Source of the DNA: an uncultured Candidatus Saccharibacteria bacterium
GTDB taxonomy: Bacteria > Patescibacteriota > Saccharimonadia > Saccharimonadales > Saccharimonadaceae
Reading direction: 5' to 3'
DNA length: 64,000 bases
Assembly (NCBI GenBank): GCA_964431025.1
Contig: CAYSIB010000001.1
Location: 9,457 to 73,456, forward strand
In this document: positions 30,381 through 47,976 of the stretch, piece after piece
Numbering within the stretch: position 1 is the first letter of the stretch
How the letters are laid out: each line of letters starts with the position of its first letter
Notes under the pieces: model-generated
The model's input: only the letters and a program-made list of their open reading frames with translations
Told to the model about the DNA's origin: nothing
Databases searched by the model: none
Position numbers and translations under genes: made by a program

Positions 30381-30451
30381 GCCGTATTGACTTTTTGGGT
30401 CATCTGTGCTATAATAAGAAAATGGGGTGTTCTTTTATAGGAGGTGTCTAA

Positions 30452-32191: not shown

Positions 32192-32241
32192 AGATTAGTA
32201 TCTTTTTGAAAACTTTTATGATAAAATAAAAGTTGTAAAAT

Positions 32242-34980
32242 ATGCTAGCAAACATTATTCACTTTATTTTAATGCCTATTGTTTGGATGCCTATCGTCGG
32301 TGTCCTGGGCTTTTTAACCTATAGAAATTACAAAAAAATCAACCGCCTCAAGGTCTTAAACGTCGACTCTGTACTTTTGATGCTCGAGATTCCGCGCACC
32401 AACGACAAAAAAGAGCTCGCCGCGGAACAGCTTTTTGCTAGTCTTCACGGTATTCTAAGAGACAAAACCGAACTCAAAAATTCTGGCGGCATCCAGGAGC
32501 ATCTGAGCTTCGAAATCGTTTCCACCGGCGGTCAAATCCGCTTCTACGTCTGGACACCAAAGGTATTGCAGAGTTTCGTAGAAGGCCAAATTTACGCTCA
32601 ATATCCTTCTGTCCAGATTTATAAGGTAAAAGAAGACTACGTCGAAAAAGGGAAGGACTATCCAGTAGTCTATTCTAGCGAAATCGCCTTGACCGAAAAC
32701 GAAGTTTTACCAATTAAGACCTTCGAAAACTTCGAAGTTGACCCACTGGCCGGTATTACAGGTACCCTTGCTAAGCTTAACCCAGACAAGAACGAAGAGC
32801 TCTGGATCCAGATCCTCACTCGCCCTATCCCTGATGACTGGCACAAATCCACTACCGACAAATGGGTCAAAGCTGTCAAATCCGGCAAGCGCATCGGTCT
32901 CTTTGGGATTGACTGGACCTGGCTAATTACCGCCCTAGGCGCACTCTTTCGCCCACCAGAAGGTGGTACCGTCACACCTGTTACCGTAGAACTTTCCGAG
33001 CGCGCCAAAACTCAGGTCGAGAAAGCCGAAGAAAAAGCCACTAAGCTTGGCTACGAAGTCAAAATCCGCTTGGTCTATCTTGGCTCTGACCAGATGGATG
33101 CCAAACTTAATATGCAGGCCCTCGTTGGTACATTTAAACAGTACAATTCTACCAATCTGAACGGCTTCAAGAGCATTGGCGGCACTTTTGACAAAAACGC
33201 GCTCGAAGCCTATCGCTTGCGCCGCTTTACTTCCCGCGGATTTATTCTCAATATTTCCGAGCTCGCATCGGTCTATCACCTCCCTCACACCTCCGTAGAA
33301 ACCCCAAACATCGTCTGGGCGACTTCTAAGACCGCCGAGCCTCCCGCCCAGCTTCCACTTATCACTGGTAACGCCGCGCACGACGAAAACATTTCTGCTT
33401 TTGGTCTTACCAATTTCCGCGGCATTAACCACCAGTTCGGTATGCTCCGTCGCGACCGTTCTCGTCACGTTTATATCATCGGTCAAACTGGCGCCGGTAA
33501 ATCTGGTATGCTTGAGCTCTTTGCCCTCTCCGATATTTTCTACGACCAAGGTTATTGTATTATCGATCCACACGGTGATTTCGCCATTAACAACCTCCGC
33601 TTCGTCCCAGAAAAACGCATCAAAGACGTAGTTTATTTCAACCCTGCCGATACCCAATTCCCAGTCGCCTTTAACCCGCTAGAACTTTCCGACCCAAGCC
33701 GCAAACCTAACGTCACTTCCGAAGTCATCGGCGTGCTAAAACGTATGTTTGGCGACTCCTGGGGTCCTCGCCTCGAGCATATTTTGCGCTACACTCTGCT
33801 TGCCCTACTAGACCGTCCAGAAACCACCTTACTTGATATTTCTCGTATGCTTACGGATAAGGATTTTAGAAAGGAAACACTTGATTATTGTAAAGACGTC
33901 ACCGTGCTTCAATTCTGGAAACACGAATTTGGCCAGTGGAATGACAAGCAGGTCAACGAATCTATCGCCCCAGTCTTAAATAAGGTCGGTGCCTTTACCG
34001 CCAACCCAATCATCAGAAACATCATCGGTCAACCAAAGTCTAGCTTTGACGTTCGTCGCATTATGGACGAAGGAAAAATCCTCGTTGTCAACTTGTCCAA
34101 GGGTCTAATCGGCGAAGACAATGCCGGTATTCTTGGCGCCTTCCTCGTCACTAAAGTTCAGCTCGCTGCGATGTCCCGCTCCGATATTCCAGATGTCGCC
34201 GACCGCCGTCCGTTCTATCTCTACGTCGATGAGTTCCAGAACTTCGCCACCGATTCCTTTGCGGTCATCCTGTCAGAGGCACGCAAATACGGTCTCAATC
34301 TCACCGTCGCCAACCAGTACATTTCCCAGATGACTGACAACGTTCGCGATGCTGTCTTTGGTAACGTCGGTACCACTATTTCTTTCCGTGTCTCTGCTGA
34401 TGACGCCCCACTCCTTTCCAAGCAATTTGAGCCAACCTTTGAAGCCCAAGATTTACTTTCCCTCAACAACCGCAACTTCGTTATCTCCATGATCATTAAC
34501 GGTGAAAAAGTTCCAGCCTTCTCCGCCACCACCCTCTCTATTCCAACTACGCCAAAAGACAATTTTGACGCGATTATCGCCTCCTCTCGCGAGAAATACT
34601 CTCGTCCTCGCGCCGTCGTCGAGGCAGAAATCAAAGAGACTATCGAACAAAGCGAAAAGTACAAGAAAGAGCTTTCCGATTCTGGTCGCGCCGCCGGAGA
34701 AATTGGCGCCATGATGAACCCGCAGAATGGACAGGGAACTATCGCCAAAAAAGGCTTCGTCTACCAACCTTCCCCTAAGGCCGATTTTAAGAAACTCAAA
34801 CTTTCTCCAGACATGGCCGAAGGTAAAACTGATCGTCCGGGCCTAAAAGATCTTGGCAAGTTGCTTGAACAAAATCAAACTAATCTACCAGAAAAGCAGC
34901 TCGAACAGGGAAACGCACCACAAAAATCCCACAATAATCACCATAAGCCACGCCACAAAAATAACTCCAAAAAGCATTAG
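32242..34980 (+). CDS. T4CP/VirB4/HerA-like ATPase (TraD/DUF87-type), membrane-anchored
   Basis: HVYIIGQTGAGKS, IIDPHGD, YVDEFQNF, SEARKYGL, ANQY. Confidence 0.85.
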   Translation: MLANIIHFILMPIVWMPIVGVLGFLTYRNYKKINRLKVLNVDSVLLMLEIPRTNDKKELAAEQLFASLHGILRDKTELKNSGGIQEHLSFEIVSTGGQIRFYVWTPKVLQSFVEGQIYAQYPSVQIYKVKEDYVEKGKDYPVVYSSEIALTENEVLPIKTFENFEVDPLAGITGTLAKLNPDKNEELWIQILTRPIPDDWHKSTTDKWVKAVKSGKRIGLFGIDWTWLITALGALFRPPEGGTVTPVTVELSERAKTQVEKAEEKATKLGYEVKIRLVYLGSDQMDAKLNMQALVGTFKQYNSTNLNGFKSIGGTFDKNALEAYRLRRFTSRGFILNISELASVYHLPHTSVETPNIVWATSKTAEPPAQLPLITGNAAHDENISAFGLTNFRGINHQFGMLRRDRSRHVYIIGQTGAGKSGMLELFALSDIFYDQGYCIIDPHGDFAINNLRFVPEKRIKDVVYFNPADTQFPVAFNPLELSDPSRKPNVTSEVIGVLKRMFGDSWGPRLEHILRYTLLALLDRPETTLLDISRMLTDKDFRKETLDYCKDVTVLQFWKHEFGQWNDKQVNESIAPVLNKVGAFTANPIIRNIIGQPKSSFDVRRIMDEGKILVVNLSKGLIGEDNAGILGAFLVTKVQLAAMSRSDIPDVADRRPFYLYVDEFQNFATDSFAVILSEARKYGLNLTVANQYISQMTDNVRDAVFGNVGTTISFRVSADDAPLLSKQFEPTFEAQDLLSLNNRNFVISMIINGEKVPAFSATTLSIPTTPKDNFDAIIASSREKYSRPRAVVEAEIKETIEQSEKYKKELSDSGRAAGEIGAMMNPQNGQGTIAKKGFVYQPSPKADFKKLKLSPDMAEGKTDRPGLKDLGKLLEQNQTNLPEKQLEQGNAPQKSHNNHHKPRHKNNSKKH

Positions 34981-35053
34981 AGGTATTGATTTTTTCACCA
35001 TTTTGTGCTATAATAAGAAAAGTAACTATTGTTATGCATCTTAGGAGGTATCT

Positions 35054-35647
35054 ATGGGTAGAAAAGTTTTTTACCAAGCCTGGGTTAGCGGTCGTAGCGG
35101 AAAATTACGCAAACTCACCCCTGACCAGATTATGTCTGATCTTAAAAAAGATATTGAACTGGGTCGGGAATGGTCAATCGATCCAAAAGAACTTATCGAG
35201 ATAATCTCGAAACCAGAGTTCTCGGAGTACAAATCAAACGAAATCAAGACCATCATCCTCAATTACTGCGCCGATTTATTAACTGGAGACGTAGTTCTAG
35301 GAGAAGAGCCGCTTGATATTCGCATTATCACCTACTGTTATCATACGTCCTACGGGGATGATGCGGTTGCCGCAAAACTCCATTATAAGCAGAGCGTCTT
35401 AAGCTCCACAATCGACCACTATCTGGCAAAACACAGCGACGCAGTCGCCAACATCGGTGATTCCGACCTCAAAAATTGGCGGAAAAACTGGGAAGCCACT
35501 GCAATCAAAAATTTCTGCAGATTCTTTGGCCCAGAGCTTACACGCTGGGAACTAAAAATCCGCAAAAAGTCCAGAAACGACTTCGAGAAATTTTTCGCAA
35601 ACGAACCCACTCCAGAACCCACTCCACTTCAAGAAACAGGGAATTAA
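35054..35647 (+). CDS. Hypothetical protein (orphan cassette A)
   Basis: 197-aa ORF, SD aggaggt, own -10; stop lies inside palindrome P1. Confidence 0.7.
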   Translation: MGRKVFYQAWVSGRSGKLRKLTPDQIMSDLKKDIELGREWSIDPKELIEIISKPEFSEYKSNEIKTIILNYCADLLTGDVVLGEEPLDIRIITYCYHTSYGDDAVAAKLHYKQSVLSSTIDHYLAKHSDAVANIGDSDLKNWRKNWEATAIKNFCRFFGPELTRWELKIRKKSRNDFEKFFANEPTPEPTPLQETGN

Positions 35648-35660
35648 GCTTCCCTGTTTT
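35634..35660. repeat. Palindrome P1 (AAACAGGGAA-ttaagc-TTCCCTGTTT)
   Basis: Perfect inverted repeat; near-identical copies at 36429 and 37141. Confidence 0.85.
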
Positions 35661-35744
35661 TCTGTCTTACGCCTCTATCCGTATGCTATAATTAACCTGT
35701 AACCTGCGTTTGTTCTTTAAAGTTTTGTGGAGGTGATGTTGTTT

Positions 35745-36443
35745 ATGAAGATACAAAGAGTTAACCAACAACTAATATTTACCCCTCTAAATAGGTGTGA
35801 TCCGACAGAAACAGAAATATCAGTCTCAAAATTTATCAAGGAAACCAAGGTCAAAAGCAAAAATCCCGAGACTTCTCTAATTATGACTTTAACTCCGGGA
35901 GTAGTTTTTAATACTTTGCCGTTCCTTTCTACCCGTAGACAAAAAGCTGAAGTCTGTGCCAACTTACTTGATTACTTATCGTTTCGCTTGGAGAAATACA
36001 CCGCGCAAATCGTCAAAGGGGAGACGCCGGCTAGCGTTTTCGTCATCGCAAGCTACTGTCTAAATCACATCTGGGGAACCTATAGCCCCAATAAGACATC
36101 TTGGCCCTCACCCTATTATGCTTCAGCAAACCGTTTTTGCTCGAGCCTGGTTAAGACCGCCGCGGAGGCTCATAGCGTGACGAATCTCGGACAAACTGTT
36201 TCCGATCTTTTCATGATAAATCCAACCTTTCGTCCGCCCAGAAAAACCACTTTTAAGCCCTGGTACGACAACGAATCTGGTACCGCCAAAGAATCTGCCA
36301 TCAGAAACAACGTTTACAAAATTATTCGTAGCGACCCCCTCACGTGGATAGAAGAACTAGGTTTTTTTCTAATCTGGCTTTCAAAAGCCACCATTGTAAG
36401 AGATGTCCATTCCTCCAAAAAGCGTAGCAAAACAGGGAATTAG
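35745..36443 (+). CDS. Hypothetical protein (orphan cassette B)
   Basis: About 232-aa ORF, SD ggaggtg; stop lies inside palindrome P2. Confidence 0.68.
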   Translation: MKIQRVNQQLIFTPLNRCDPTETEISVSKFIKETKVKSKNPETSLIMTLTPGVVFNTLPFLSTRRQKAEVCANLLDYLSFRLEKYTAQIVKGETPASVFVIASYCLNHIWGTYSPNKTSWPSPYYASANRFCSSLVKTAAEAHSVTNLGQTVSDLFMINPTFRPPRKTTFKPWYDNESGTAKESAIRNNVYKIIRSDPLTWIEELGFFLIWLSKATIVRDVHSSKKRSKTGN

Positions 36444-36455
36444 CTTCCCTGTTTT
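36429..36455. repeat. Palindrome P2
   Basis: aaaacagggaa-ttagc-ttccctgtttt. Confidence 0.85.
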
Positions 36456-36457
36456 TC

Positions 36458-36793
36458 CTATTTTACGCTCATCATCGCAAACTGATCGTAATACTTTTGC
36501 ATCTGTTTAGGGTCTGTCTGGAAATAGTTTTCACCAAAAAAGTAATCACAAAACTCCTCCCTCGCCCTACATATCTCCCTAAGCTTAGCCGAATCCTTGT
36601 TGAACTTCATCGAAAGGTCAAATAGTTCTAGTGCTCTGTCAATTGCTGCGTTCATCCGTCGCTCGTTTCTTCCTTGCCATTTTAGCGACCTAGACACTTC
36701 GCTACCAATATTTCCCATTTGCATATTGAAGGGTAACTCGCCCCATCTACCCTCAGCCAGCTCTTGATGCTGATAGCCTACTCCGTTATCCAC
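36458..36793 (-). CDS. Small helical hypothetical protein coupled to DUF5674 gene
   Basis: HQELAEGRW..LPF..QMGNIGSEVSR motif; overlaps upstream gene stop. Confidence 0.75.
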   Translation of the reverse strand: MDNGVGYQHQELAEGRWGELPFNMQMGNIGSEVSRSLKWQGRNERRMNAAIDRALELFDLSMKFNKDSAKLREICRAREEFCDYFFGENYFQTDPKQMQKYYDQFAMMSVK

Positions 36794-37122
36794 CTCTGTA
36801 CTACCTCTGTTATTTTCCGCCTAATTTCAGGATCTTCTACGCCCCTAGAGCGGTTATTTTGTCTTGGACGAATATTAATCATGGAATCAAATTCGATAAA
36901 ATCTTCCGGAGCATCATCTGGATAAAGGTTTATACCCCAAAGAGACTCCTGCAGGGAATCATTCTCCAAAAATAGCTGTTCCAAGTCTGCATGAAGCTGC
37001 GCATCAACGGCAAGCAATCCTTTATCAACGTCCACCACACCCTTTACCATACATTCATCAAAGACGACCTCTGAATTTTTTAGTAAATCATTTTTATTAA
37101 TTGGTGACTTTATTATTTTCAT
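36778..37122 (-). CDS. DUF5674-like protein
   Basis: KGVVDV, HAD, LWGINLYP, IEFDSMINIRP, NRSRGVED; -10/N6/ATG start. Confidence 0.78.
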   Translation of the reverse strand: MKIIKSPINKNDLLKNSEVVFDECMVKGVVDVDKGLLAVDAQLHADLEQLFLENDSLQESLWGINLYPDDAPEDFIEFDSMINIRPRQNNRSRGVEDPEIRRKITEVVQRWITE

Positions 37123-37140
37123 ATCTATATTTTACCATAG

Positions 37141-37169
37141 AAAAACAGGGAATTAACTTCCCTGTTTTT
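37141..37169. repeat. Palindrome P3
   Basis: aaaaacagggaa-ttaac-ttccctgttttt, on the promoter side of the DUF5674 gene. Confidence 0.85.
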
Positions 37170-37547
37170 TCTACCTCACCCCTGTTATAACGCTTCCCCA
37201 CCCCTGTTAGTTCTCTGTTCTGCCTCTGTTAGAACCAAAGCCTTACCATAGCAATCACTTTACCGCCCCTGTTTTATCTCTGTTAAATCCACCCGAGGCC
37301 CTAAGAGCCGCTAAAACGCTTTGAAAAGTCAAAGACGCTATTACAGTCGTCCACGAGCACCAAACGGCCTAGAATCGCACGAGAATGGGGAAATACGACA
37401 AAAATAAGCACAAGCACTACAAAACACGGCAAAATCGACCTACAAAAGACGTATGGACAATCGTCTTTTTCCCAAATCTCCAATGTCGCACAATATATCT
37501 TTTACGACATTAACCCTAGGACAATATGGACGATAGAGTTATGTGTT

Positions 37548-37718
37548 AATAGCCAATAGAAACCTATCTATAGGTCCATAAAGGCGGATTTCACCTTAGA
37601 AGAATGAGGAGCAAACACCTAACGAGCACGATTTAGACCGGCGCAGTTAGGGTTTGCGAGTCATTCGGATAAGGCTGAAACCAAGAGGACCTATAGATAG
37701 GTTTTTATTGGCGCTATT
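37548..37718. repeat. Rod-like palindromic element copy 1 (117-bp core 37574-37690)
   Basis: Core identical to 41328-41444; about 30-bp inverted arms. Confidence 0.9.
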
Positions 37719-38002
37719 CAGGCTCTTCTGACCTCTCTCAGAATCGCTTTTTCACCCCCACCCCTGTTACATCGCGTTTTTTGGCCAATTTTGATCCAAA
37801 TTTGCCCAAATTTTTCAATTTGACTTTTCCCTGCATTTATTTTGTTTTGAGTAGTTCTCCCCTGTTATTCCCTCCCCCACCCGCCAAAATCGAGCCATTT
37901 TCCAACTTTAATTTCTCGTTCAATTCCCCACTAATTCCAAAAACCGAACAAAAACCGAACTTAAGATTTCCCCTGTTTTAGCCCCTGTTGTATAATATAT
38001 CC

Positions 38003-38680
38003 ATGTACAAAGAGTTCAAATCCGAGCTTGTTTCCCTTGCCGACGACGAGTATCGTGACTTTTCCATGCGCGGCATTCCCTGTGACCGCCCTTTCATTGG
38101 TGTTCGCATCCCATTAATTAGGAAATTAACGAATAAAATCCCTGCTTCCGTCTTTCCTGAATTCCTTAGCGCAAAACCAATTGCTATAGAAGAAGTCATC
38201 GCCCGGGGTTTTATTATCGCACGCCTCCCGTATGAAGAAATGCTAAAATATTTTGATTCCCAAATACAATTCCTAGATAACTGGTGCACCGTTGACGTCT
38301 TTTGCTCCGCACTAAGAAAGCCCGTGAAAGGCCACGAAGAAGGCTTTCTTCCAAAAATCGAAGAACTTCTCCAATCTAAAGACGAATTTTCCGTTCGTGC
38401 TGGACTCGTGCTTTTGTTGGACTTGTATGTTAAACCAGAATATTTGCAGCTGGTTTTTGATCGCATCGAATCCTTACGCAATCGTGATGAATATTATGTC
38501 AAAATGGCGCTCGCCTGGCTCCTCGCCGAATGTTTTATCAAATATCCAGACATTACATACGACTATCTAAACAGTTCCAAACTCGGAAAATGGACTTTCA
38601 ATAAAGCCATCTCCAAGATTTGCGATTCTTATCGCGTCACTCCCGAGGTCAAATCCGAACTCAAACTCCTCCGCAAGTAA
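38003..38680 (+). CDS. DNA alkylation repair protein (AlkD-like HEAT repeat)
   Basis: IGVRIP, LDNWCTVD, EFSVR, YYVKMALAWLLAE. Confidence 0.88.
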   Translation: MYKEFKSELVSLADDEYRDFSMRGIPCDRPFIGVRIPLIRKLTNKIPASVFPEFLSAKPIAIEEVIARGFIIARLPYEEMLKYFDSQIQFLDNWCTVDVFCSALRKPVKGHEEGFLPKIEELLQSKDEFSVRAGLVLLLDLYVKPEYLQLVFDRIESLRNRDEYYVKMALAWLLAECFIKYPDITYDYLNSSKLGKWTFNKAISKICDSYRVTPEVKSELKLLRK

Positions 38681-38687
38681 TTCTCTT

Positions 38688-38984
38688 GAGCTACTTCTCT
38701 TCCGCGAAGCCTATCATTTTATTGAGAGTGGAAAAGGAAATATCTATGGGACCACCGGCCTTAGTACTATTCTAAATGAATTCCCTCTCGACATGGTCTA
38801 CGCAGGCAACATCTATTTTGGTGATGGTACGAGATATGATAACGAAACTGGCGGCGTAAACTGGTCACAATATGCTCTGCCCGACAATCAAGCATCTGCG
38901 GTCAACTTCAGCGACGTCTACGTTGGCCCCAATCACGGCAATCAAAGAAGATATGGCTTCTCCGTCCGCTGTGTAGCGAAATAA
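38688..38984 (+). pseudogene. Silent FISUMP-like C-terminal cassette C1
   Basis: ELLLFREAYHFIESG...FPLDMVYAG...NWSQ...RRYGFSVRCVAK*; no N-terminal part or own promoter. Confidence 0.8.
38696..38735 (+). repeat. 40-bp cassette-start repeat R1
   Basis: tctcttccgcgaagcctatcattttattgagagtggaaaa; copies at 39265, 40151, 41008. Confidence 0.95.
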
Positions 38985-39251
38985 CTCGGCGGCTCCGGAG
39001 AGAACCGCACCGATACTACTCAAAGGAATAAGTTCATTAATTCACCATATAACTTCCCCTACTCCGGGTTCTACAATTACGGAGGCGGGGTCGGCGGTCA
39101 GGGCTCGGACGGGCACTGGTGGTCTCGTAGTGCCACAACTCAGGCCGGCCAAGCCTACCACTTCGACCTGGATACCAATGGCCGCGTGTACCCGCAGAAC
39201 AACTACTCTAGCGTTGGGTACGGGTTCGCAGTCCGCTGCATGGCTGAGTAG
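38985..39251 (+). pseudogene. Silent FISUMP-like C-terminal cassette C2
   Basis: Starts right after C1 stop; SPYNFPYSG...WWSRS...AYHF...GYGFAVRCMAE*; no start codon. Confidence 0.85.
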
Positions 39252-39264
39252 CTATTGGCTATAT

Positions 39265-39304
39265 TCTCTTCCGCGAAGCCTATCATTTTATTGAAAGTGG
39301 AGAA
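39265..39304 (+). repeat. 40-bp cassette-start repeat R2
   Basis: One mismatch to consensus (gaaagt). Confidence 0.95.
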
Positions 39305-39541
39305 ACGACTGCTGGCACAAATTCTGGTGGCCCAGCAGCTAGCGCAGCCATCAAACAATACCCATTCTCCTATACGTATTCTGGACGCGTCATTGGCGGT
39401 AACATTCAATACATTGGTGAATATGGATTTCTATGGACAATCAGAACCGAAACGGATACTGATGCAAATACGCTTAGATTCTACGAGCCAGTCGTATCGG
39501 TAACAAATTCCTTCAATAGAAGACAAGGTTTTCCCGTCCGC
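39266..39541 (+). pseudogene. Silent FISUMP-like C-terminal cassette C3 (ends at GFPVR)
   Basis: LFREAYHFIESGE...YPFSYTYSG...LWT...RRQGFPVR, then runs into the fic stop codon. Confidence 0.78.
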
Positions 39542-40101
39542 TACAAATTATGCACGTCGTATTCAGATTGCTCTTCGTATTCGTAAGAAGATTGTATCCC
39601 CTTCATATACACTTCACGATCATTGATATCGGAAGTCAATGCAGACTCGAGCAGAGTCTTTATTTCCAAATCATTTATCGGCGAACGCTCCATCGCAGAA
39701 AGATATTCTTCCTTCCCTATCTTTGACCAATCTACACATTTTCCAAGTCTCTTCTTCAAAATCTGATCTAGCCAAATTCTCGTTGCCCGACCATTTCCTT
39801 CACGGAACGGATGTGCCACGTTCATTTCTACATATTTTTTTACAATTTCATCAAAAGTATTTTCCGGAAGATTATCGATGGTTTTTAAAGTATCTTCAAG
39901 ATAAATTGCCGGCGCAAACCGAAAATTCCCCTTAGAGAGATCCACGTCACGAATCTTCCCTGCAAAGTCAAAAACGTCCTGGAATAAATAACGATGTATC
40001 TGTTTTAGCCCCTCAGTCGTACCGACCTCAAACTCGTCGATTTTTCCAGTATCATATAATTCAATAGCTCGTTTTTTACTAGCTAATTCTTCATTCTGCA
40101 T
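39541..40101 (-). CDS. fic: Class III-type Fic protein adenylyltransferase
   Basis: HPFREGNGRATR, C-terminal GIQSSYEYEE; tggtataat-N6-ATG at 40101. Confidence 0.92.
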   Translation of the reverse strand: MQNEELASKKRAIELYDTGKIDEFEVGTTEGLKQIHRYLFQDVFDFAGKIRDVDLSKGNFRFAPAIYLEDTLKTIDNLPENTFDEIVKKYVEMNVAHPFREGNGRATRIWLDQILKKRLGKCVDWSKIGKEEYLSAMERSPINDLEIKTLLESALTSDINDREVYMKGIQSSYEYEEQSEYDVHNL

Positions 40102-40150
40102 ACTACTATTATACCATGAAAACCGCACCTCTTTAAGCTCTTAAGCTACT

Positions 40151-40190
40151 TCTCTTCCGCGAAGCCTATCATTTTATTGAGAGTGGAGAA
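40151..40190 (+). repeat. 40-bp cassette-start repeat R3
   Basis: Consensus copy. Confidence 0.95.
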
Positions 40191-40448
40191 ACAAGTACGT
40201 GGTCTGAAGGACCGAGCATTAGCATCACCCTTTTCCCTTTCTCGCAAACTTATGCAGGTGGCATAGGAGACAATGGAACTGGCGGTGGATTAGATGACGG
40301 AACAGATCTAGAATATGGACTATACCACACGATGAGAGCACTATCATCCGATCATGCAAACTACTTCGATTCTCATCAAGGAAGTTATATTATACCTCAA
40401 AACAACGGGCCAAGAAAATGGGGTATGCCCGTCCCGCTTTACAAATAA
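40152..40448 (+). pseudogene. Silent FISUMP-like C-terminal cassette C4 (3' end altered)
   Basis: LFREAYHFIESGE...FPFSQTYAG...PQNNGPRKWGMPV-PLYK*. Confidence 0.72.
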
Positions 40449-40472
40449 ACATAAGTGTGATAGCATAAGAAC

Positions 40473-40543
40473 ATAAAGGAAGTGGCCCAGAATTCCACTT
40501 CCGAATGTTAGGTTTAGCTCGTCGCTTTAGCGGCGGGCTTTTT
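40473..40543 (+). ncRNA. Putative antisense sRNA (type I antitoxin-like)
   Basis: TGa-TAGCAT -10 at 40458-40466, hairpin ggaagtgg/ccacttcc, terminator agctcgtcgc/gcggcgggct+T5 whose G-U pairs favour the + strand. Confidence 0.45.
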
Positions 40544-40595
40544 TGAGAACAAACGATACATTGTATTTTCCAATATGTATTGTGATTCCAAGCAT
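40527..40595 (-). CDS. 22-aa small peptide MLGITIHIGKYKCIVCSQKARR (type I toxin-like candidate)
   Basis: SD aaaggag upstream; stop sits in the loop region of the opposite-strand terminator. Confidence 0.45.
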   Translation of the reverse strand: MLGITIHIGKYNVSFVLKKARR

Positions 40596-40748
40596 ACGTC
40601 CCACTCCTTTCCCAAAAATGCCGGCGGGTTTATCTGGTTCACCTACCTCGCAGTTAGCATTTCTGTAACTTACGCTGTAGCCAAAACCCCACACCCAGTT
40701 TTACTGTCTCAAATTATTCCGCTAATTGCAAGCGCTAGCATAATGATT

Positions 40749-40994
40749 AACCGCACCAATGCTGCTCAAAGGGATAAGTTCATTAGTTCACCATATAACT
40801 TCCCCTACTCCGGGTACTACGATTACGGAAGCGGGGTCAACAATCAGGGCTCGGACGGGTACTGGTGGTCTAGAAGCAGCTTCACTGCGGCCGGCCAAGC
40901 CTACAACTTCCGCCCGTATACCGATGGCCGCGTGAACCCGCAGAACAACAATGACGTTGGGTACGGGTTCGCGGTCCGCTGCGTAGTTGAGTAG
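40749..40994 (+). pseudogene. Silent FISUMP-like C-terminal cassette C5 (paralog of C2)
   Basis: NRT..QRDKFISSPYNFPYSG...WWSRS...GYGFAVRCVVE*; about 85% nt identical to C2. Confidence 0.85.
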
Positions 40995-41007
40995 CTATTG
41001 AGCTTTA

Positions 41008-41047
41008 TCTCTTCCGCGAAGCCTATCATTTTATTGAGAGTGGAGAA
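41008..41047 (+). repeat. 40-bp cassette-start repeat R4
   Basis: Consensus copy. Confidence 0.95.
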
Positions 41048-41314
41048 ACCAGCACAGTAGAAATGACGATAATTGAAACTGCACTCTCATATCCAACAGA
41101 ACTCCAATACTCTGGATATACAGACGGATCAAGGGGGACAATTGGTGGCAGAGATTCGGGTGGCTGGTTTTGGGTGCCACGGGCCATAAGCAGCATTGCC
41201 GCAAACGGATTAGATATCAGAGCAGCCGGGTTCAACCCGCAGACATTCACAAGTAAGAAAACGGGATATGACGTCCGCTGTGTAGCCAAGGCGTACCTAG
41301 ATTGGCAAGTTTAA
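41009..41314 (+). pseudogene. Silent FISUMP-like C-terminal cassette C6
   Basis: LFREAYHFIESGE...YPTELQYSG...WFW...KKTGYDVRCVAK. Confidence 0.78.
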
Positions 41315-41466
41315 TTCTATTTCTCAAGTCCATAAAGGCGGATTTCACCTTAGAAGAATGAGGAGCAAACACCTAACGAGCACGATTTAGACCGGCGCAG
41401 TTAGGGTTTGCGAGTCATTCGGATAAGGCTGAAACCAAGAGGACTTGAAAATAGAATTAAGCTTGC
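41304..41466. repeat. Rod-like palindromic element copy 2 (117-bp core 41328-41444)
   Basis: Identical core, different roughly 25-bp inverted arms. Confidence 0.9.
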
Positions 41467-41492
41467 TAACCACAAGCACAAATTAGCCTCTA

Positions 41493-42029
41493 CTACTTGT
41501 AATACCCCTTCCCTTTCACCCTCACATCCACATACTGCGGATGAAGGTCGTTCTCAGTCAAATACTTCAGCATTGTCTTCGTATCCTCTGCGCTCACCGC
41601 CGTACCCCTATCTACGCTCAACTTAAAATACGTCTCATTCCCATCTAGGTAAATATCGATTTCTCGAGTTTTCCCTGCCGGCACCACCGCTCTATTAAGT
41701 GACAATCCAATGTCAGAAAGATCGATCTCCAGCTGCCCCACATACTCCTTAATTTTACTAGTGATTCCCTGCCCTGATTCGTCAATAATTTCCACTGTCG
41801 GCTGAGGAATGTATTTTGACATCTCAATCTTTTTACGATTCGTCATCCAAGTTGTCACTTCCATCACGATGATGATAGCGATAATCGCAAGAATCGCCAC
41901 TAGTGCCAGCACCTTAAAAATCTTCTTGTTTTTCTCTTTTTTCCTAGCAGCCAGACGCTCCGATTCAGACTCTTGCCTCTCCCATTCCTGGGCAATCGTC
42001 CGCCCGACTCTTACATCATTCTTTCTCAT
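41493..42029 (-). CDS. Bitopic membrane protein, FtsQ/DivIB-like C-terminal domain
   Basis: Follows murG, single TM, ends YVDVRVKGKGYYK. Confidence 0.6.
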   Translation of the reverse strand: MRKNDVRVGRTIAQEWERQESESERLAARKKEKNKKIFKVLALVAILAIIAIIIVMEVTTWMTNRKKIEMSKYIPQPTVEIIDESGQGITSKIKEYVGQLEIDLSDIGLSLNRAVVPAGKTREIDIYLDGNETYFKLSVDRGTAVSAEDTKTMLKYLTENDLHPQYVDVRVKGKGYYK

Positions 42030-43278
42030 CCAGACCACCCGTATCATTCGCTAATTTTATCAAAATATCCGCAAGATCTTTTGCTGCCTTTGGCTTATAC
42101 GTCTCATGCAATTTCGCCGCTAAATCTTTTCTAACTTTTGGACTTCTTACCAGTCTTTGTACTTCTTCTAGCAAAATCCCAGGTTGGTTAACCATGCGCC
42201 CATCTTTCACCATCACTACCGCCCCAAGACTCAGCAGCCTCTCTGCATTTTTTACTTGGTGACTACCAGGAAGTTGTTCAAACGGCACTAGTATTACCGC
42301 TTTTGCGAGCGCTGCCAACTCTGCAATTGTGGTTGCTCCGGCACGAGAAACTACTACGTCCGCCGCACCCATCAGCTCATTCATCGCCGAGTTAAACGCC
42401 CACATTCTAAAATTAGACTTGAGCTTAGCTTTATCCCAATCTTCATATTTTTTAAGGTCAACCATCTCTTCATAACGGCTGCGTCCAGCTACCAGCCCCA
42501 CACTAGTAAACTTCAACATCTCTGGCAAAATTTCACGCACCGCTTCATTAATGTGCTGCGCGCCCTGGCTTCCGCCCGTGATCACTACTAGTGGTTTTTC
42601 TTCATCAAACCCAAACGCTTTTTTAAGCTGCTTCTGCTTAGTCTCACTAACCCTCTTAAACTCCGGCGCCACCGGCACCCCAGTAAGCACCACTTTTGGA
42701 TCAGGCTCTACTCCGTCAATTTCTTCCACCGGCAAACTTGTTGCCACTTTTGTCGCGTGCTTCACTAGAAGCCTATTCGCTAACCCCGGCGTCGCATCAC
42801 TCTCATGAATCACATACGGAATCTTATAAAATCTCGCCACAATCCCCACCGGCAAGCCCACAAATCCCCCTTTCAAGAAAATCACATCTGGGCGATTCTT
42901 TTTTAGAAGCATCCGGAAGAAGCTTTGGAATATCCCACCCATAAATCCAATCAATCCGCCAATATTTCCAAATATTAAATCTTTTAGCGTAGTGTCCCAG
43001 TTTTTAAAATAATCCGCCAAACTCCATCCAGCATAGCGTCTAAATTTTCCCGCCGCAACTTTTCTTACCTGAATATACTGTCTTTTTCCCGAAACACGCG
43101 ACTCTTCACCCCATGCCACCCCTATTTCTGTTGTAATTTTTACAACATTTTTGTAATATTTCTTATCAGTCCAGAATTCTACTCTGGCTCTCGGTTTTTC
43201 TTCTAAAATCTCACGGACGACCGCGACGGCTGGCGTAATGTGTCCCCCCGAGCCCCCGCCTACTACTAATACTTTCAT
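42016..43278 (-). CDS. murG: UDP-GlcNAc:lipid I GlcNAc transferase
   Basis: GGGSGGHITP, KGGFVG, HESD, TGGSQGA, SRAGATT. Confidence 0.95.
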   Translation of the reverse strand: MKVLVVGGGSGGHITPAVAVVREILEEKPRARVEFWTDKKYYKNVVKITTEIGVAWGEESRVSGKRQYIQVRKVAAGKFRRYAGWSLADYFKNWDTTLKDLIFGNIGGLIGFMGGIFQSFFRMLLKKNRPDVIFLKGGFVGLPVGIVARFYKIPYVIHESDATPGLANRLLVKHATKVATSLPVEEIDGVEPDPKVVLTGVPVAPEFKRVSETKQKQLKKAFGFDEEKPLVVITGGSQGAQHINEAVREILPEMLKFTSVGLVAGRSRYEEMVDLKKYEDWDKAKLKSNFRMWAFNSAMNELMGAADVVVSRAGATTIAELAALAKAVILVPFEQLPGSHQVKNAERLLSLGAVVMVKDGRMVNQPGILLEEVQRLVRSPKVRKDLAAKLHETYKPKAAKDLADILIKLANDTGGLDEKE

Positions 43279-44410
43279 TTTTTACCTCCCTTCCAGTATA
43301 ACACGAAAGTTGACAAACCAATCCAAGTGAGAAAGCGATAAATATCATACTCGTACCACCATAAGAAAGCAGTGGCAAAGTGATACCCGTCAACGGCACC
43401 AATCCCGTCATCGCCGCGATATTTACCACCACTTGCGCCGCAATCCAGGCAAACACTCCTACTACCACTAAACTTTCTTCCGTACTACTCTTAGTCGCGA
43501 CTTTCAAGATTCGCATTAGCAAGAAAGTAAACGCAATCACTACCGCAGAAAGCCCCACAAAACCAAATGTCTCGCCCATCACCGCAAAGACCGAGTCGTT
43601 AATTGACTCCGGCAGGTATCCCGTCGCCTGCACGCTATTCCCTATTCCAACCCCCAAGAGTCCACCCGTACCAATCGCCATTTTAGCATTGTCGATATGA
43701 TAAGTTTCATCCGAACTTCCGCTTCCAGAAAAGGTCGTCATACGCTCCAAGCGATGCGGAGAACTCACGATCGCCACCACTCCACCAACCAGTGCGAGCG
43801 CCACAATTACCGCAAACACGCTTATTTTTATTCCGCCCATATACATGATCGCAAGCACTATTGCTAGCACTGCTAGACCCGTACCCAGATCCTTCTGCAA
43901 AATCACTACAAAGAACAGTGCTAGAAGCGCCACAATCGCGTATGGCTGCAAATAATCACGCGACTCTAGCTTTCCTTCTTTCTTCCACTTCGCCGTCAGT
44001 TGTGCAAGATATAGCACTAACCCCAGCTTCAAAAATTCTGCCGGCTGAAAACTTACCGCCCCAAGGTTAAACCACCTACATCCACCTAACTCACACTTCG
44101 CAAGCGAACTCCCAATCAATGAAAGCAATGCTAACGCCGCGCAAAGCCCCAGCCCCACAAATACCAAAATCTTCGAATAAGTTTTCAGCTTTTCAAATGG
44201 AAATTTAAACGCTACGATAAACGCCGCTACAGATAATCCTACCGACAAAAGCTGATGCAAGAAAAAATAATTCGAACTATAATCTGTTCCGTACGCCGAA
44301 TTCATAAAATTAGCCCTTTGCGGCCCAATCGCATAAATCACCACCAGCCCCACAGCCAGTAGCACAAAGGTAATAATTGCAATCAATCGATCACTCTTAT
44401 GCTTTCTCAT
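43211..44410 (-). CDS. ftsW: SEDS peptidoglycan glycosyltransferase
   Basis: FQPAEFLK, QKDLGT, LPESINDSVF, LPLLSYGG; dcw context. Confidence 0.9.
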   Translation of the reverse strand: MRKHKSDRLIAIITFVLLAVGLVVIYAIGPQRANFMNSAYGTDYSSNYFFLHQLLSVGLSVAAFIVAFKFPFEKLKTYSKILVFVGLGLCAALALLSLIGSSLAKCELGGCRWFNLGAVSFQPAEFLKLGLVLYLAQLTAKWKKEGKLESRDYLQPYAIVALLALFFVVILQKDLGTGLAVLAIVLAIMYMGGIKISVFAVIVALALVGGVVAIVSSPHRLERMTTFSGSGSSDETYHIDNAKMAIGTGGLLGVGIGNSVQATGYLPESINDSVFAVMGETFGFVGLSAVVIAFTFLLMRILKVATKSSTEESLVVVGVFAWIAAQVVVNIAAMTGLVPLTGITLPLLSYGGTSMIFIAFSLGLVCQLSCYTGREVKNESISSRRGLGGTHYASRRGRP

Positions 44411-44512
44411 ACATTTATTATATCATGAGAAAGTCAGGACATGCGCCTGACTTTCTCATCACACTAGGTTCTTTTCGTTGGGACATTTCTTCCAAGAAAA
44501 GTCCCATTTGCG

Positions 44513-45547
44513 CTAAGCGATACCGCTTGCTGCCGCGATGAATACGCCGATAAGCGCTAGCACCCCCGCAATCACCCAAAACCGCATCACAATCTTTGCT
44601 TCTCCCCAACCCTTTGCTTCCAGATGATGATGAATCGGTGCAGAAATAAACAATTTATGCTTAAACACCTTCTTCCAAATAATCTGAAGTAGTGACGAGC
44701 CAGCCTCTACTACTAGAAGTCCACCGATAATCGGTAGTAGGAAGAACGAGTCCGTCATCATTGCTACTACACCCAGCCCCGCGCCTAGCGCAAACGAGCC
44801 AACATCGCCCATCATAAATCTGGCTGGCGGCACGTTGAACCAAACATAGGATAGTAACCAGCCCACTACCGTGAGACAGAATCCAAACAACATCCAGTTT
44901 CCCTGGAAAAGTGCAATAATTCCAAACGCCCCATAGGCTATCATTGAAAGACCACCTGCGAGTCCGTCCAGTCCATCAGAAATATTCACCGCATTAGATG
45001 TTGCCACTACTGCAAAAGCAAATACTGCCGTCATCAGCCACCAAGGTAGTTGCCACACTCCTAGAAACGGCACATGAATTGCGCTCCAGCCTAGCTTCAC
45101 CGAGAAGAACCAACCAAGTGCCAACCCCACTGCCGTAATCATCGCAAATTTCACTGGCGCCCTTAGGCCTGCTGCGCCATGCCCATCACCAAAGACGTTG
45201 ATGAGGTCATCAATTAGTCCTACTAGACTACCGCCAAGAAAACCAAACAGTGGTAACCAGGTCTGTCCTCTGTCCCAGTTGCACGCAATCGTCACAATTG
45301 CTACCGTCGCTACACCAATCACTCCAGCCATCGTCGGGAAATGTCTACCATTCGCAAACTTGTGCGCGTGAAGCTTCGTCATTACTGGCAAAGCCTTACC
45401 ATCTACTGCAGTCTTCTTTTGCTTTTTCCAAAACTTATATTTGTATGCAAAATGCGTATAAATCGGCGTGAGGAACATCGCTAATAGAAATGAACCTAGC
45501 GAGAGTAATAGTCCATAAAACATTTCGCTACTAATTTGAAAATGCAT
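44513..45547 (-). CDS. mraY: Phospho-MurNAc-pentapeptide transferase
   Basis: PTMAG, GLIDD, NAVNISDGLDGL, FMMGDVG, APIHHH. Confidence 0.95.
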   Translation of the reverse strand: MHFQISSEMFYGLLLSLGSFLLAMFLTPIYTHFAYKYKFWKKQKKTAVDGKALPVMTKLHAHKFANGRHFPTMAGVIGVATVAIVTIACNWDRGQTWLPLFGFLGGSLVGLIDDLINVFGDGHGAAGLRAPVKFAMITAVGLALGWFFSVKLGWSAIHVPFLGVWQLPWWLMTAVFAFAVVATSNAVNISDGLDGLAGGLSMIAYGAFGIIALFQGNWMLFGFCLTVVGWLLSYVWFNVPPARFMMGDVGSFALGAGLGVVAMMTDSFFLLPIIGGLLVVEAGSSLLQIIWKKVFKHKLFISAPIHHHLEAKGWGEAKIVMRFWVIAGVLALIGVFIAAASGIA

Positions 45548-45549
45548 TT

Positions 45550-47277
45550 TTATTCTCCTGCTTTTATTTTTAGATAATTAATCATATAATCATTCATTTC
45601 ATTAAAGATCGGCATGGCGTCTTTTTCGCCTTCCATCTTTAGCCCCTCTCCCCATATTTTAACCATAATTACGTATTCTGGCAACTCCCCTTCCGCCCCA
45701 CCAAATCCAACATAGTTACCAATTGTCTCGTCAAACGTATAAGCTCCGTCTTTAATTCCCTGGCTCGTACCAGTCTTTCCGCCAATATAATATCCCGCTC
45801 TATCTTCTCCTCTTAGTCTATTACCGACCCTCACTCCATAGAGCATCTCCCGCATCGTTGCAGAAGTCTCCTTGGAAATAACTTGCCTCACCGGTTCTGG
45901 AGAATCTTGGTATTTAAATTCCCCACTTTCCGTCACCTCACCCGCCACAATCGTCGGTTTATAATAATCTCCGCCATTTATCACAGAAGAAAACGCCGCC
46001 GCAATTTGCATCATTGTCACATTTAGACCCTGACCAAACGTCATGTTGGCATAGCGCGAATTATAAGCATCTTCGTCATCTGGCTTTGTCACATAGCCCG
46101 GCGACTCAAATAATTCAATTCCCGTGTACTGTCCTAACCCAAATCTATCGTGATAGTATTCATACAACAATTCCTTACCACGTTGCGTGATCCGGCTCGA
46201 ATCTCCGCCAAGCAGCATCAATGCCGTCATCGAACTAGTATTAAGAGAATAGTTTAGACCCGTCTGCATCGTAATCGTACCAAGCTGTCCCTTGTACGCA
46301 TTAGAAATTGTCCAGTTGTCAATTATCAGATATCCTGCGTTATTATACGTTGTCTCCGGCGTCATCTTTCCCTGATCAATCGCCGCCGCAAAAGAAAATG
46401 TCTTGCACATTGATCCAGGCTCATACGCCGACTCTAGTGGCACATTCACAAACACCGACGCATCTTCCACCTCTGCGTAATTTGTTGCATCATATGTTGG
46501 CAAATTCGCCATCGCCCAAACTTCACCATTATTTGGATCCATCACAATCCCTGCCGCATGTGTCGTTCCGGACCTTTCTATGCCGTTTTGCAGTACTTTC
46601 TCCAACTGATATTGGACATTTTTATCAATCGATAGCACTACGTTTTTTCCATTTTTGGCTGGCACCCGCACGTTATCATTTCCGATACTAAGCGCTACAT
46701 TATTCACATCCGTCACAGTCTTTAGTACACCGTCTTCGCCAGCCAGCTCCTCGTCAAGCGCCCCTTCCACGCCATATTGCCCCTCGCCATCCGCATTCAC
46801 GAATCCAAGCAGTGACGAAGCCATCTGCCCTTCCGCATAGACCCGAGCGTTATTCTTGCTATACCACACTCCAGCTAGTTCAGCCTCTTTAATTTTTTGC
46901 ACCGCATCGCGCTTTACGCCCTTTGCTACAACATAATACCGTCTAGTTTTATCCGCAAATACATCTTTCCAATCTGCTACTTTTTTATCTTTTGCTACTG
47001 CATCAATCGTTTCAGAAACTTTCTTCTCATCCGCCACCATCGGATCTACTACCACCGTCCACACCGTCTCATTCATCACCGCGATACTTGGTTCATCCCC
47101 ATCCATCATATAAATTTCACCGCGCGTTGCCTTGATTTTACTCTGTACGATGTGTTCTTCTTCAGCCCGCGCTACCCAAGAATCGTGTTCTATTATCTGT
47201 ATCACAAAAAGCCGCGCCAAAATTACGGTCACGGCTATCATTAGTCCGATCCTCAAAAATTTAGCGCGTTTATTCAT
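45550..47277 (-). CDS. ftsI: Class B penicillin-binding protein
   Basis: RGEIY, EPGSMCK, SLN, GKTGTSQ. Confidence 0.88.
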   Translation of the reverse strand: MNKRAKFLRIGLMIAVTVILARLFVIQIIEHDSWVARAEEEHIVQSKIKATRGEIYMMDGDEPSIAVMNETVWTVVVDPMVADEKKVSETIDAVAKDKKVADWKDVFADKTRRYYVVAKGVKRDAVQKIKEAELAGVWYSKNNARVYAEGQMASSLLGFVNADGEGQYGVEGALDEELAGEDGVLKTVTDVNNVALSIGNDNVRVPAKNGKNVVLSIDKNVQYQLEKVLQNGIERSGTTHAAGIVMDPNNGEVWAMANLPTYDATNYAEVEDASVFVNVPLESAYEPGSMCKTFSFAAAIDQGKMTPETTYNNAGYLIIDNWTISNAYKGQLGTITMQTGLNYSLNTSSMTALMLLGGDSSRITQRGKELLYEYYHDRFGLGQYTGIELFESPGYVTKPDDEDAYNSRYANMTFGQGLNVTMMQIAAAFSSVINGGDYYKPTIVAGEVTESGEFKYQDSPEPVRQVISKETSATMREMLYGVRVGNRLRGEDRAGYYIGGKTGTSQGIKDGAYTFDETIGNYVGFGGAEGELPEYVIMVKIWGEGLKMEGEKDAMPIFNEMNDYMINYLKIKAGE

Positions 47278-47293
47278 TCTCTAATTATAACAT

Positions 47294-47683
47294 TTAATTG
47301 CTGGCATAACCAGAAGCGTTTCCGTCCTGCATCCTTGCTGCAACTTGTGAATTTTCACTTGCAGCGATTGATGTCAGTCTCGCTCGCTCCACTGCCAAAT
47401 CTTCTTTTTTGGCCTGCAAATCAGAAATCTCATCCTCAATACTAGAAAGTTCATAATCATACCCAGTAGCCTTCACACCCTGAGTAGCATAAATCAGACC
47501 CACGATCAGGACCATCAAGCCAAAAATTGCTGTCAGACTGAGATTCCCCAGCTTCTTGCCAGAATGTCTCACCGTATTCTGATTACGCGACCAAGAATTC
47601 GTCACCACTCCTCGCCTCGTTACGTATTCGTTTCGCATTCTTTCCTTTCGTGTTTCCTTTTTATTTTTTTCGTACAAAATCAT
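47294..47683 (-). CDS. FtsL-like TM + coiled-coil protein
   Basis: Single TM then coiled coil; located between rsmH and ftsI. Confidence 0.65.
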   Translation of the reverse strand: MILYEKNKKETRKERMRNEYVTRRGVVTNSWSRNQNTVRHSGKKLGNLSLTAIFGLMVLIVGLIYATQGVKATGYDYELSSIEDEISDLQAKKEDLAVERARLTSIAASENSQVAARMQDGNASGYASN

Positions 47684-47865
47684 TAGTCTCCCAAGATTTC
47701 CCTTGTTCGACTCACATAGACTAGAGCGGCCACCGCATGCAGAGCTATAAGTGTATACGGCTCCGCTCTAGGAAGGTCATATATTATTTATAAACACCAA
47801 CCCAGGATTCTCCACAACCTGGGACGGAGGTTTCCCTCCATATAAGCCCCGAAGGGCTATAAAAT

Positions 47866-47931
47866 CTAGCGGAAGTTGACTTTGATCTTCTGTGCGCGAG
47901 ATTTGTTCATTACAGTGATTTGACGTGGCAT
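47866..47931 (-). CDS. 21-aa small ORF MPRQITVMNKSRAQKIKVNFR
   Basis: SD aaggagg 5 nt upstream, followed by hairpin tatagccc-ttcg-gggcttata. Confidence 0.35.
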   Translation of the reverse strand: MPRQITVMNKSRAQKIKVNFR

Positions 47932-47976
47932 ATTTGCCTCCTTTTTATTTGTTGTTTTTATTTTTAACAACCACGT

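Follow-up and report, generated by a model that had tools for sequence, protein, structure and literature searches.

What is the role of a row of gene ends that lack their beginnings? This question is raised by positions 38688-41314 of a 64,000-nucleotide stretch of DNA (hereafter the window) from an uncultured Candidatus Saccharibacteria bacterium, where six C-terminal halves of a FISUMP-like domain, named cassettes C1 to C6, follow each other on the + strand in open frames devoid of a start. The window corresponds to contig1:9457-73456 of a 25-contig, 702-kb genome, and protein matches likewise assign it to Candidatus Saccharibacteria. These organisms are found attached to other bacteria, their hosts, and the way in which hosts are recognised and changed is of particular interest. 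The reading favoured here, with a probability of about 0.55, is that of a silent cassette store resembling the pilS loci of Neisseria and coupled to diversity-generating retroelements (DGRs) and to an inversion switch; the descriptive parts of the analysis are held with high confidence.

Four of the cassettes, C1, C3, C4 and C6, form a first class opened by a common sequence, the class-1 key, whose 29-mer CTCTTCCGCGAAGCCTATCATTTTATTGA is found as exact + strand copies at 38697, 39266, 40152 and 41009 of the window, with no match expected from 100 shuffles. The in-frame translation of each key copy is LFREAYHFIESG, after which about 85 open codons, the tip, end in G(F/Y/M)xV(R/P)(C/Y/L). C1 (38697-38984, +) comprises the key at 38697-38741 and a tip that ends in GFSVRCVAK before a TAA stop, C3 (39266-39586, +) ends in GFPVRYK with a tail overlapping the 3' end of a Fic-domain gene, C4 (40152-40448, +) has the degenerate end GMPVPLYK, and C6 (41009-41314, +) ends in GYDVRCVAK and further residues. 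C2 (38985-39251, +) and C5 (~40747-40994, +) belong to a second class that begins with AACCGCACC, and they are 85% identical to each other over 300 nt. In C2, the class-2 key starts at 39003 and the part homologous to the template of a retroelement described below, DGR#2, spans 39054-39257; in C5, for which gene callers give a 139-aa open reading frame (ORF) at 40575-40994, the key starts at 40749 and the template-homologous part covers 40800-41000. Directly upstream of all six cassettes lies an in-frame stop or unrelated DNA, so that the N-terminal half of the domain is absent, and the cassettes abut head to tail without spacers. At 39238-39265 (+), a junction motif made of GAGTAGCTATTG and a degenerate (A/G)GCT.T.T fuses the class-2/DGR#2-template 3' tail to the class-1 key, and this junction recurs at 40982-41008 and on contig 3. 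The remnant of a deleted class-2 cassette is visible at 40121-40151 (+), where its first 9 nt (AACCGCACC) and a 3' tail-like AGCTCTTAAGCT abut the C4 key. In-place translation of the cassettes was ruled out, there being no in-frame start except a chance ATG before C5, as was an extension of their frames by TGA recoding, since stops of all three kinds bound them. A weak scan detected no + strand sigma-70-like site upstream of C1, C2, C3 and C6.

The assignment to the FISUMP family deserves some caution as far as the isolated cassettes are concerned. Their best score against the FISUMP profiles (PF09603/TIGR02145) does not exceed 19.6 bits, compared to a cut-off of 33.9, with matches on profile positions 110-186. 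Sub-threshold matches are obtained for C3 (E=0.005, positions 114-185), C5 (E=0.001, positions 123-186), and C1 (E=0.08), and C2, C4, and C6 give no FISUMP match with either the Pfam or the TIGR profiles. The match to PF09603 anticipated in the preliminary description thus falls on the C-terminal part of the profile as announced, but stays below threshold and is lacking in half of the cassettes. The homology is better shown by two genes situated upstream of the window on the same contig, namely geneA, whose tip is that of C1, and geneB. geneA reaches 24.4 bits with the Pfam profile over positions 40-186/187 and 33.1 bits with the TIGR profile (cut-off 41.65), while geneB reaches 35.7 bits in a six-frame search, compared to the cut-off of 33.9; its variant P0016 has no match at E<=0.01, and its orthologues P0017 and P0021 carry a PF09603 match. 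Besides, a profile derived from the tips aligns at residues 604-700 of the 702-codon frame of geneB and at residues 117-210 of the geneA fragment, that is, at the C-terminal half, and the class-1 key comes after a CPxxWxLP motif. This alignment and the open, start-less frames bear out the co-oriented, promoterless store of C-terminal FISUMP-like halves that had been proposed. Judging from these sequence comparisons, the domain is a divergent FISUMP-like one, whose C-terminal half is assumed to bind ligands in view of the C-type-lectin fold known from other targets of DGRs. A structure prediction for geneA from a 16-sequence alignment was unusable (mean predicted local distance difference test score of 50), and a sequence search of the PDB returned no match.

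At the scale of the genome, the class-1 key appears as a sharply bounded block. The four copies of a 40-bp repeat described earlier are confirmed, but the shared length varies between 36 and 45 nt, the C1 copy diverging after nt 36 (GGAAAAGG vs GGAGAAAC). Ten copies are present in the 702 kb (five on contig 1, two on contig 3, two on contig 5, and one on contig 11), compared to a chance expectation of 0, and the copies within an array are all direct repeats. When that of geneA is excluded, the nine orphan keys show 99% pairwise identity over 38 nt, in comparison with a near-random 30-36% in both flanks (the preceding 30 nt and the sequence that follows). The key is unchanged in a strain, L016, which is itself 93-96% identical elsewhere. 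No copy exists in 60 relatives, 36 of which are congeneric species, and none was found in GTDB species genomes or in JGI metagenome contigs. The class-1 tips display 27-39% protein identity to C1 and about 30% DNA identity among themselves, keep the fold motifs in all cases, and match no DGR template.

The tip-derived profile retrieves 38 tip-like frames in the genome, of which eight belong to ORFs that contain the whole FISUMP-like domain and two to DGR templates, the others, about 28, being orphan halves. The latter comprise nine class-1 halves (in addition to the geneA tip), about 12 class-2 halves, and members of a third class, found on contig 3 behind the key SWRLPTGGSGGEY. The window array is only one of several. 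A dense array of about ten cassettes at the end of contig 3 (contig3:60879-63931) mixes the third class with class-1 and class-2 cassettes, the third-class key beginning about 12 codons earlier in the domain. Moreover, beheaded "whole-domain" copies of 200-260 codons at contig6:53792-55525, contig17:1493-2131, contig12:5428-6102, and contig14:1339-1854 begin near ...TLSDTRD.NTY.VRKLADGNCWM, which suggests an additional tier of longer cassettes whose key would be the best-conserved part of the family sequence. In a relative in which a key-like peptide occurs in a full-length gene (P0030), no cassettes were seen within 6 kb of that locus, and a class-2 tip used as protein query of genome contigs yielded no confirmed locus.

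Which gene could receive these tips? A full-length gene carrying the key had been predicted elsewhere in the genome, and a gene with the key in frame was indeed found, although beheaded. geneA (contig1:2-643) possesses an N-terminal FISUMP half upstream of an in-frame key copy at contig1:350, lies about 9 kb upstream of the window and 48 kb from the array, and is the only key acceptor found. Its tip (contig1:349-627) is identical to C1 at 38697-38975 over 279 of 279 nt, from the first base of the key to the VRC motif, and the flanks of this tract are unrelated on both sides, so that its limits as a transfer tract are those expected from the preliminary description. In two assemblies where geneA is complete (L011, L012), it counts 308 codons, begins at an internal Met of geneB-type sequence, and directly follows the terminator hairpin of a Bro-N gene; neither an upstream coding part nor a start signal of its own was seen there.

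geneA belongs to the locus of a first retroelement, DGR#1 (contig1:1-5433, 4-9 kb upstream of the window), whose reverse transcriptase has the IGNLSSQ and YVDDF motifs and an RVT_1 match. The template is located at contig1:2802-3021 and the variable repeat at contig1:3309-3528, at the end of geneB, a full-length DGR#1 target of 687 aa with a signal peptide or N-terminal hydrophobic anchor and a FISUMP-like domain. In the variable part, all 13 mismatches between template and variable repeat fall at template adenines. No two of the six versions of the geneB variable repeat (P0016, P0097-P0099, P0003, P0004) are alike; since it is different in every assembly, DGR#1 is active. geneA and geneB are moreover connected by a perfect 355-bp inverted repeat, at the edge of which their protein identity drops from 113/113 to about 42%. 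These repeats bracket the tip of geneA (tip A), the accessory gene, the reverse transcriptase, the template, and the tip of geneB (tip B). In two relatives (L022, L023), the gene order is prfB, target, accessory gene, reverse transcriptase, template, Bro-N, and compared to them the accessory-reverse transcriptase-template block is inverted here exactly between the repeats, which indicates a past inversion. With the block flipped the other way, the key and tip A would become part of the anchored full-length protein. For geneA as it stands, with the key and the C1 tip, a promoter and an N-terminus are reachable only via the 355-bp inverted repeat shared with geneB.

Some further features of this locus can be recorded. 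The ORFs in the position of the accessory protein Avd, at contig1:869-1693 (269 aa) for DGR#1 and at contig10:26276-27160 (294 aa) for DGR#2, are twice the usual Avd size and have no Pfam or NCBIfam match, and in both DGRs, as in relatives, the template is inverted relative to the reverse transcriptase. Between geneB and prfB, a 130-aa ORF (L011:15884-16276, equivalent to contig1:~5570-5992) matches CdiA_C (PF18451), and it is absent at the same place in the relatives L022 and L023.

The second class of cassettes leads to the other retroelement. C2 and C5 had been set apart as a second class by their own start AACCGCACC, and this distinction holds, but they are more than a key class since they are copies of the DGR#2 variable repeat. 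DGR#2 consists of a reverse transcriptase (contig10:25125-26351) with the IGNLTSQ and YVDDF motifs and an RVT_1 match, the 294-aa accessory ORF, and an Asn/AAC-rich template with 26% A (contig10:~24870-25080). The 3' end of its true variable repeat, followed by a GC-rich hairpin, is found at the end of contig 10, and its full-length target gene, in which the class-2 key is read in frame (...ALGGTGVNRTDTTQRNKFINSPYN), extends past the start of contig 5, so that for this class the full-length key-carrying gene is made up of the start of contig 5 joined to the end of contig 10. When C2 and C5 are aligned with the template of DGR#2 and with ten further orphans, an adenine bias emerges that is strong but not exclusive: C2 shows 20 mismatches at template adenines and seven elsewhere, plus a 3-nt indel, while C5 shows 14 at template adenines and nine at other bases, the non-adenine differences defining subfamilies.

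Nevertheless, several features distinguish these copies from canonical DGR targets. On their 5' side, the class-2 copies continue for about 50 nt past the template homology with one common sequence, the class-2 key; because this extension goes beyond the 5' end of the template, an origin as DGR cDNA insertions was ruled out. About 12 copies of the DGR#2 variable repeat without a gene body share one 5' truncation point. While the true DGR#2 variable repeat has 27 nt of post-stop homology with the template, the orphans keep 12 nt and have no hairpin. C2 and C5 thus lack the gene body, the complete homing end (initiation of mutagenic homing, IMH), and the hairpin of a canonical target, and the partial homing end together with the missing hairpin indicates that they are no longer rewritten. 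In the same line, the variable part of C5 is identical in 21 contigs of other assemblies. C2 is 98.8% identical to a copy on contig 14 and 95.8% identical to a copy on contig 6, with the same adenine pattern; as independent mutagenesis could not produce such a recurrence at three loci, the pattern must have been copied. From these comparisons we conclude that C2 and C5 are probably frozen, archived copies of the DGR#2 variable repeat rather than live targets. Upstream of C5, the region 40455-40620 shows a strong intrinsic terminator-like hairpin at 40516-40539 (+) and a conserved stretch of about 150 nt, which recurs at 72% before other class-2 copies, on contigs 2 and 5. In the relative L022 (L022:4417-5644), three open tandem orphan copies of a variable repeat are located 2-4 kb upstream of the target gene, each with a 65-nt extension 5' of the template homology, and in one of them, o3, the 3' flank of the true variable repeat is complete.

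The comparison of strains also bears on recombination at the key. In strain L016, the AlkD-like DNA-alkylation-repair gene (38003-38680, + strand, PF08713), whose stop lies 16 nt before the C1 key and which serves as the unique left anchor of the array, is followed by the own 5' flank of C1, the key, and the C3 tip, 569 nt corresponding to the C1 tip and C2 being missing. As the contig spans unique flanks and was assembled at a k-mer length (k) of 141, above the key length, it represents a real key-to-key recombinant. Of the strain-level exchange expected from the preliminary description, a 569-bp indel with breakpoints inside the key is thereby documented. Purifying selection also seems to act on the cassettes, since no stop occurs in the 1818 in-frame codons of 21 cassettes, compared to 65 and 120 stops in the other two frames. 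Between strains, C3 has accumulated ten synonymous and seven non-synonymous substitutions, giving a ratio of non-synonymous to synonymous changes (pN/pS) of 0.21 (p=0.002), within an overall range of 0.21-0.27 (p=0.002-0.013).

Taken together, these data suggest a scheme in which the approximately 28 promoterless, 5'-truncated C-terminal halves would constitute a genome-wide store for membrane-anchored surface proteins of about 690 aa. Non-reciprocal recombination of the RecA type would move tips between store and acceptor, the homology being provided by the key on the 5' side and by the conserved G-F-x-V-R-C/stop region on the 3' side. The class-1 acceptor would be geneA, the beheaded copy inside the DGR#1 locus, and a flip between the 355-bp inverted repeats would join the promoter, signal peptide, and stalk of geneB either to tip B or to the tip of geneA. 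The genome has recA, and a crude motif search found one Xer-like recombinase on contig 4, far from the arrays, and no dedicated gene beside the window array; the earlier preference for gene conversion over site-specific inversion is hence maintained. Transfer is supported by one 279-nt identical tract, by identical class-2 variants at three loci, and by one key-bounded indel, which may point to segmental transfer at the population level. That transfers and flips are ongoing, their direction, and an effect on host attachment are inferred. A more elaborate version, in which the DGRs invent tips, recombination archives and recalls silent variants, and a RecA-driven flip of the DGR core picks either the mutable or a stored tip for display on the surface protein, is put forward only tentatively and is itself rather doubtful.

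A number of observations weigh against this scheme of store, transfer, and flip. For conversion mediated by RecA, a 5' anchor of 38 bp and a 3' anchor of approximately 20 bp are short. All assemblies found have the C1 tip on geneA, and a concatenated probe of six class-1 tips other than C1 (C3, C4, C6, and three more) retrieved no protein of about 270-870 aa among 5.8 billion sequences; in public assemblies, none of C3, C4, or C6 is joined to a long gene. Four other assemblies, which maybe derive from the same strain or cohort, show 99.99-100% identity at the window locus. The pN/pS test relies on 15-17 substitutions in a single cassette. In L016, C4 has a 121-nt deletion and a further 1-nt deletion, and since this cassette is degenerate here and frameshifted there, some cassettes are decaying. 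A 665-aa protein uniting the N-terminal part of geneB, geneA, and the C1 tip does exist on one 2.3-kb contig (P0094, L018); this contig, assembled at k=141, passes through the 355-bp and 279-bp repeats before ending in mosaic class-2 sequence, and may for these reasons be an assembly chimera. L018 and the similarly ambiguous L019 and L020 were set aside as candidates for switched forms. Finally, the genome is a metagenome-assembled genome (MAG) whose 25 contigs are broken at these very repeats, so that copy numbers and linkages are incomplete. Regarding the sequencing runs that hold the window sequence, all of which are gut metagenomes, the Logan contigs (k=31) of runs X1-X4 consist of unitigs that stop in the key and leave the junctions unphased. 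The idea that the C1 tip is single-copy in X2-X4 was rejected, the depth being the contig-wide mean.

Several of these points would be expected if the fragments were simply recombination debris, that is, leftovers of duplications and deletions among FISUMP paralogues, the key being a homogenised, recombination-prone stretch. The degenerate C4, broken in L016, the class-2 cassette deleted down to 9 nt before it, the lack of an alternative tip on any long gene, and the position of the array in a strain-variable island (joint 37964>41518) are all in keeping with this view, and a deletion of the L016 type between 45-bp direct repeats requires no dedicated system. Neutral decay would, however, not be expected to spare the fold motifs in all the divergent tips, nor to leave 21 cassettes without a stop in 1818 codons and C3 with a pN/pS of about 0.2; the 5' truncation points are identical within each class, the packing is head to tail without spacers, and a reduced 0.7-Mb genome is unlikely to retain about 10 kb of junk. 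Debris is regarded as an unlikely explanation. Less credit still is given to a displacement process comparable to that of Rhs, contact-dependent inhibition (CDI), and MafB systems, in which horizontally acquired tips would recombine, by way of the key, into a gene that is expressed, and the tips thus displaced would accumulate. The layout of a conserved key, an unrelated C-terminal tip, and a co-oriented tandem is the same, and the absence of close relatives of the class-1 tips from the long proteins of the database fits a foreign or fast-turnover origin. Yet the array follows the AlkD-like gene, 48 kb from geneA, instead of a full-length gene, cassettes of class 1 alternate with those of class 2, partner genes of an immunity-like kind are lacking, and, as the key is species-specific, foreign tips would come without it, all of which makes this process quite improbable.

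The adenine bias of the class-2 cassettes raises another alternative, according to which C2, C5, and perhaps all cassettes are live remote targets diversified in place by the DGR reverse transcriptases, the missing gene body being incidental. Adenine-biased differences amount to 20 of 27 in C2 and 14 of 23 in C5, compared to 26% A in the template, remote DGR targets are known (PMC5758913), and the three orphans of L022 vary at template adenines, o3 having the full 3' flank. Against this stand the C5 variable part, identical in 21 contigs while the geneB repeat is different in every assembly, the limited post-stop homology of 12 nt and missing hairpin of the window orphans, the identical variants at several loci, and the class-1 tips, which fit no template; live targeting is accordingly considered very improbable. 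As for a site-specific system of the shufflon, integron, or vsa type, in which the key would be the site of a recombinase excising or inserting cassettes, the sharp edges of the conserved key, the precision of the L016 recombinant, and the rod-like hairpins that close three arrays could be put forward in its favour. But all key copies of the window are direct repeats, the crude motif search revealed no recombinase gene adjoining any array and only the Xer-like one on contig 4, and the 3' end of the tract shared by C1 and geneA falls in a merely conserved coding motif rather than in a second site, so that hardly any likelihood is left to such a system.

The proposed store can be set beside several known systems. 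Conversion from silent cassettes operates in Neisseria pilE/pilS, in Borrelia vlsE/vls, at the tprK donor sites of Treponema pallidum, and in Mycoplasma genitalium MgPa/MgPar. Like these, the present genome has many promoterless, 5'-truncated, open donors that copy the variable part of a surface protein and are arranged in several head-to-tail loci with short conserved flanks, in a small host-dependent genome with recA; multiple promoterless truncated donors with conserved flanks, the hallmark of silent cassettes, are thus present. In contrast to them, each donor here corresponds to one half of a lectin-like domain, a single 38-45-bp block serves as key for acceptor and donors alike, the acceptor is silent and needs an inversion, and part of the store consists of DGR-mutated variants. 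C-terminal inversion switches are known from the tail fibres of phages Mu (G segment) and P1 (C segment) and from the R64 pilV shufflon, and a RecA-dependent inversion acts on the sap genes of Campylobacter fetus. In both cases and here, a constant promoter-proximal part can be joined to alternative C-terminal parts by a flip between inverted repeats, and the long repeats (355 bp) and the lack of an invertase recall sap. Unlike in these switches, the invertible block also holds the accessory gene, reverse transcriptase, and template of a DGR, inversion is inferred from the gene order of relatives and the perfect repeats, and no Gin-, Rci-, or Hin-type gene is present. The direct repeats, together with the failure to find an Rci-type gene, argue against an R64-type shufflon. 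Orphan modules of Rhs, CDI, and MafB systems are toxin C-terminal modules accompanied by immunity genes; they share with the cassettes a short conserved key before unrelated C-terminal modules in a co-oriented tandem, but the cassettes encode no toxins and have no immunity genes. Since the array is not downstream of a main gene and has neither immunity genes nor partner ORFs, it is not an Rhs/CDI orphan array.

With regard to DGRs, FISUMP domains have been reported as targets (PMC11661182), and both such targets and the presence of DGRs in Patescibacteria were already known (PMC11661182, PMC8144416, PMC5758913). A DGR of Treponema denticola has seven non-adjacent targets (PMC5758913), and like multi-target DGRs the present genome has scattered copies, with two sets of reverse transcriptase and template and adenine-specific differences between template and variable repeat; the variable repeat also lies at the C-terminal end of a FISUMP/CLec-like domain, as in known targets. 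What differs from known DGRs is that about 12 DGR#2 copies are bodiless, share one 5' truncation point, have a partial homing end, and are static between samples. In the literature searched, no description was found of arrays of orphan DGR variable repeats, of DGR products in a cassette store, or of an acceptor within an invertible DGR core.

The surroundings of the array contain some additional features. A Fic-domain gene of 186 aa (39541-40101, - strand, PF02661) is inserted between C3 and C4. Between strains it displays nine synonymous and no non-synonymous differences, a sign of strong purifying selection, and a Fic gene is also found beside orphan tips at the DGR locus of the relative L023 (L023:11658-12218). 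A perfect rod-like hairpin of about 170 nt is present in two + strand copies, at 37548-37715 and, directly 3' of C6, at 41302-41469 (-78.5 kcal/mol, z=-11.4), which bracket the AlkD gene and the array; their core of 117-127 nt is 97-100% identical, with 100% identity over 117 nt. Related hairpin copies (72%) terminate class-1 arrays at contig11:24358-24476 and contig5:45741-45859. This element, which has no Rfam match, may be a MITE-like element (miniature inverted-repeat transposable element), an array boundary, or a terminator; an Rfam scan of window positions 30000-50000 at E<=1 gave nothing relevant. Just upstream of the array, at about 33500-35000 (L013:11122-12561), a 912-aa TraG/VirD4-like coupling protein is encoded along with several orphan ORFs, so that the array borders on what is probably a mobile or variable region. 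Runs X3 and X4 contain a contig, with roughly a third of the main depth, that links 37964 to 41518 via 40 other letters, a weak joint whose matching side is only 30 nt, and a co-resident relative may on this basis lack the whole AlkD-cassette-Fic island.

As regards the wider meaning, such cassettes are the source of many contig breaks and "hypothetical 80-140-aa ORFs" in MAGs of Saccharibacteria, which calls for caution on the part of annotators. The key and the 355-bp repeat are concrete junctions that can be tracked in gut samples or co-cultures. The output of a DGR, which every new round normally overwrites, may be kept for later use in the form of immobile copies, and the three-layer scheme, if true, would amount to a DGR with a heritable "memory" of past variants. 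For bacteria that live attached to their hosts, this locus offers the example of one surface-protein family whose binding end is probably varied by cassette swapping, DNA inversion, and DGR mutagenesis.

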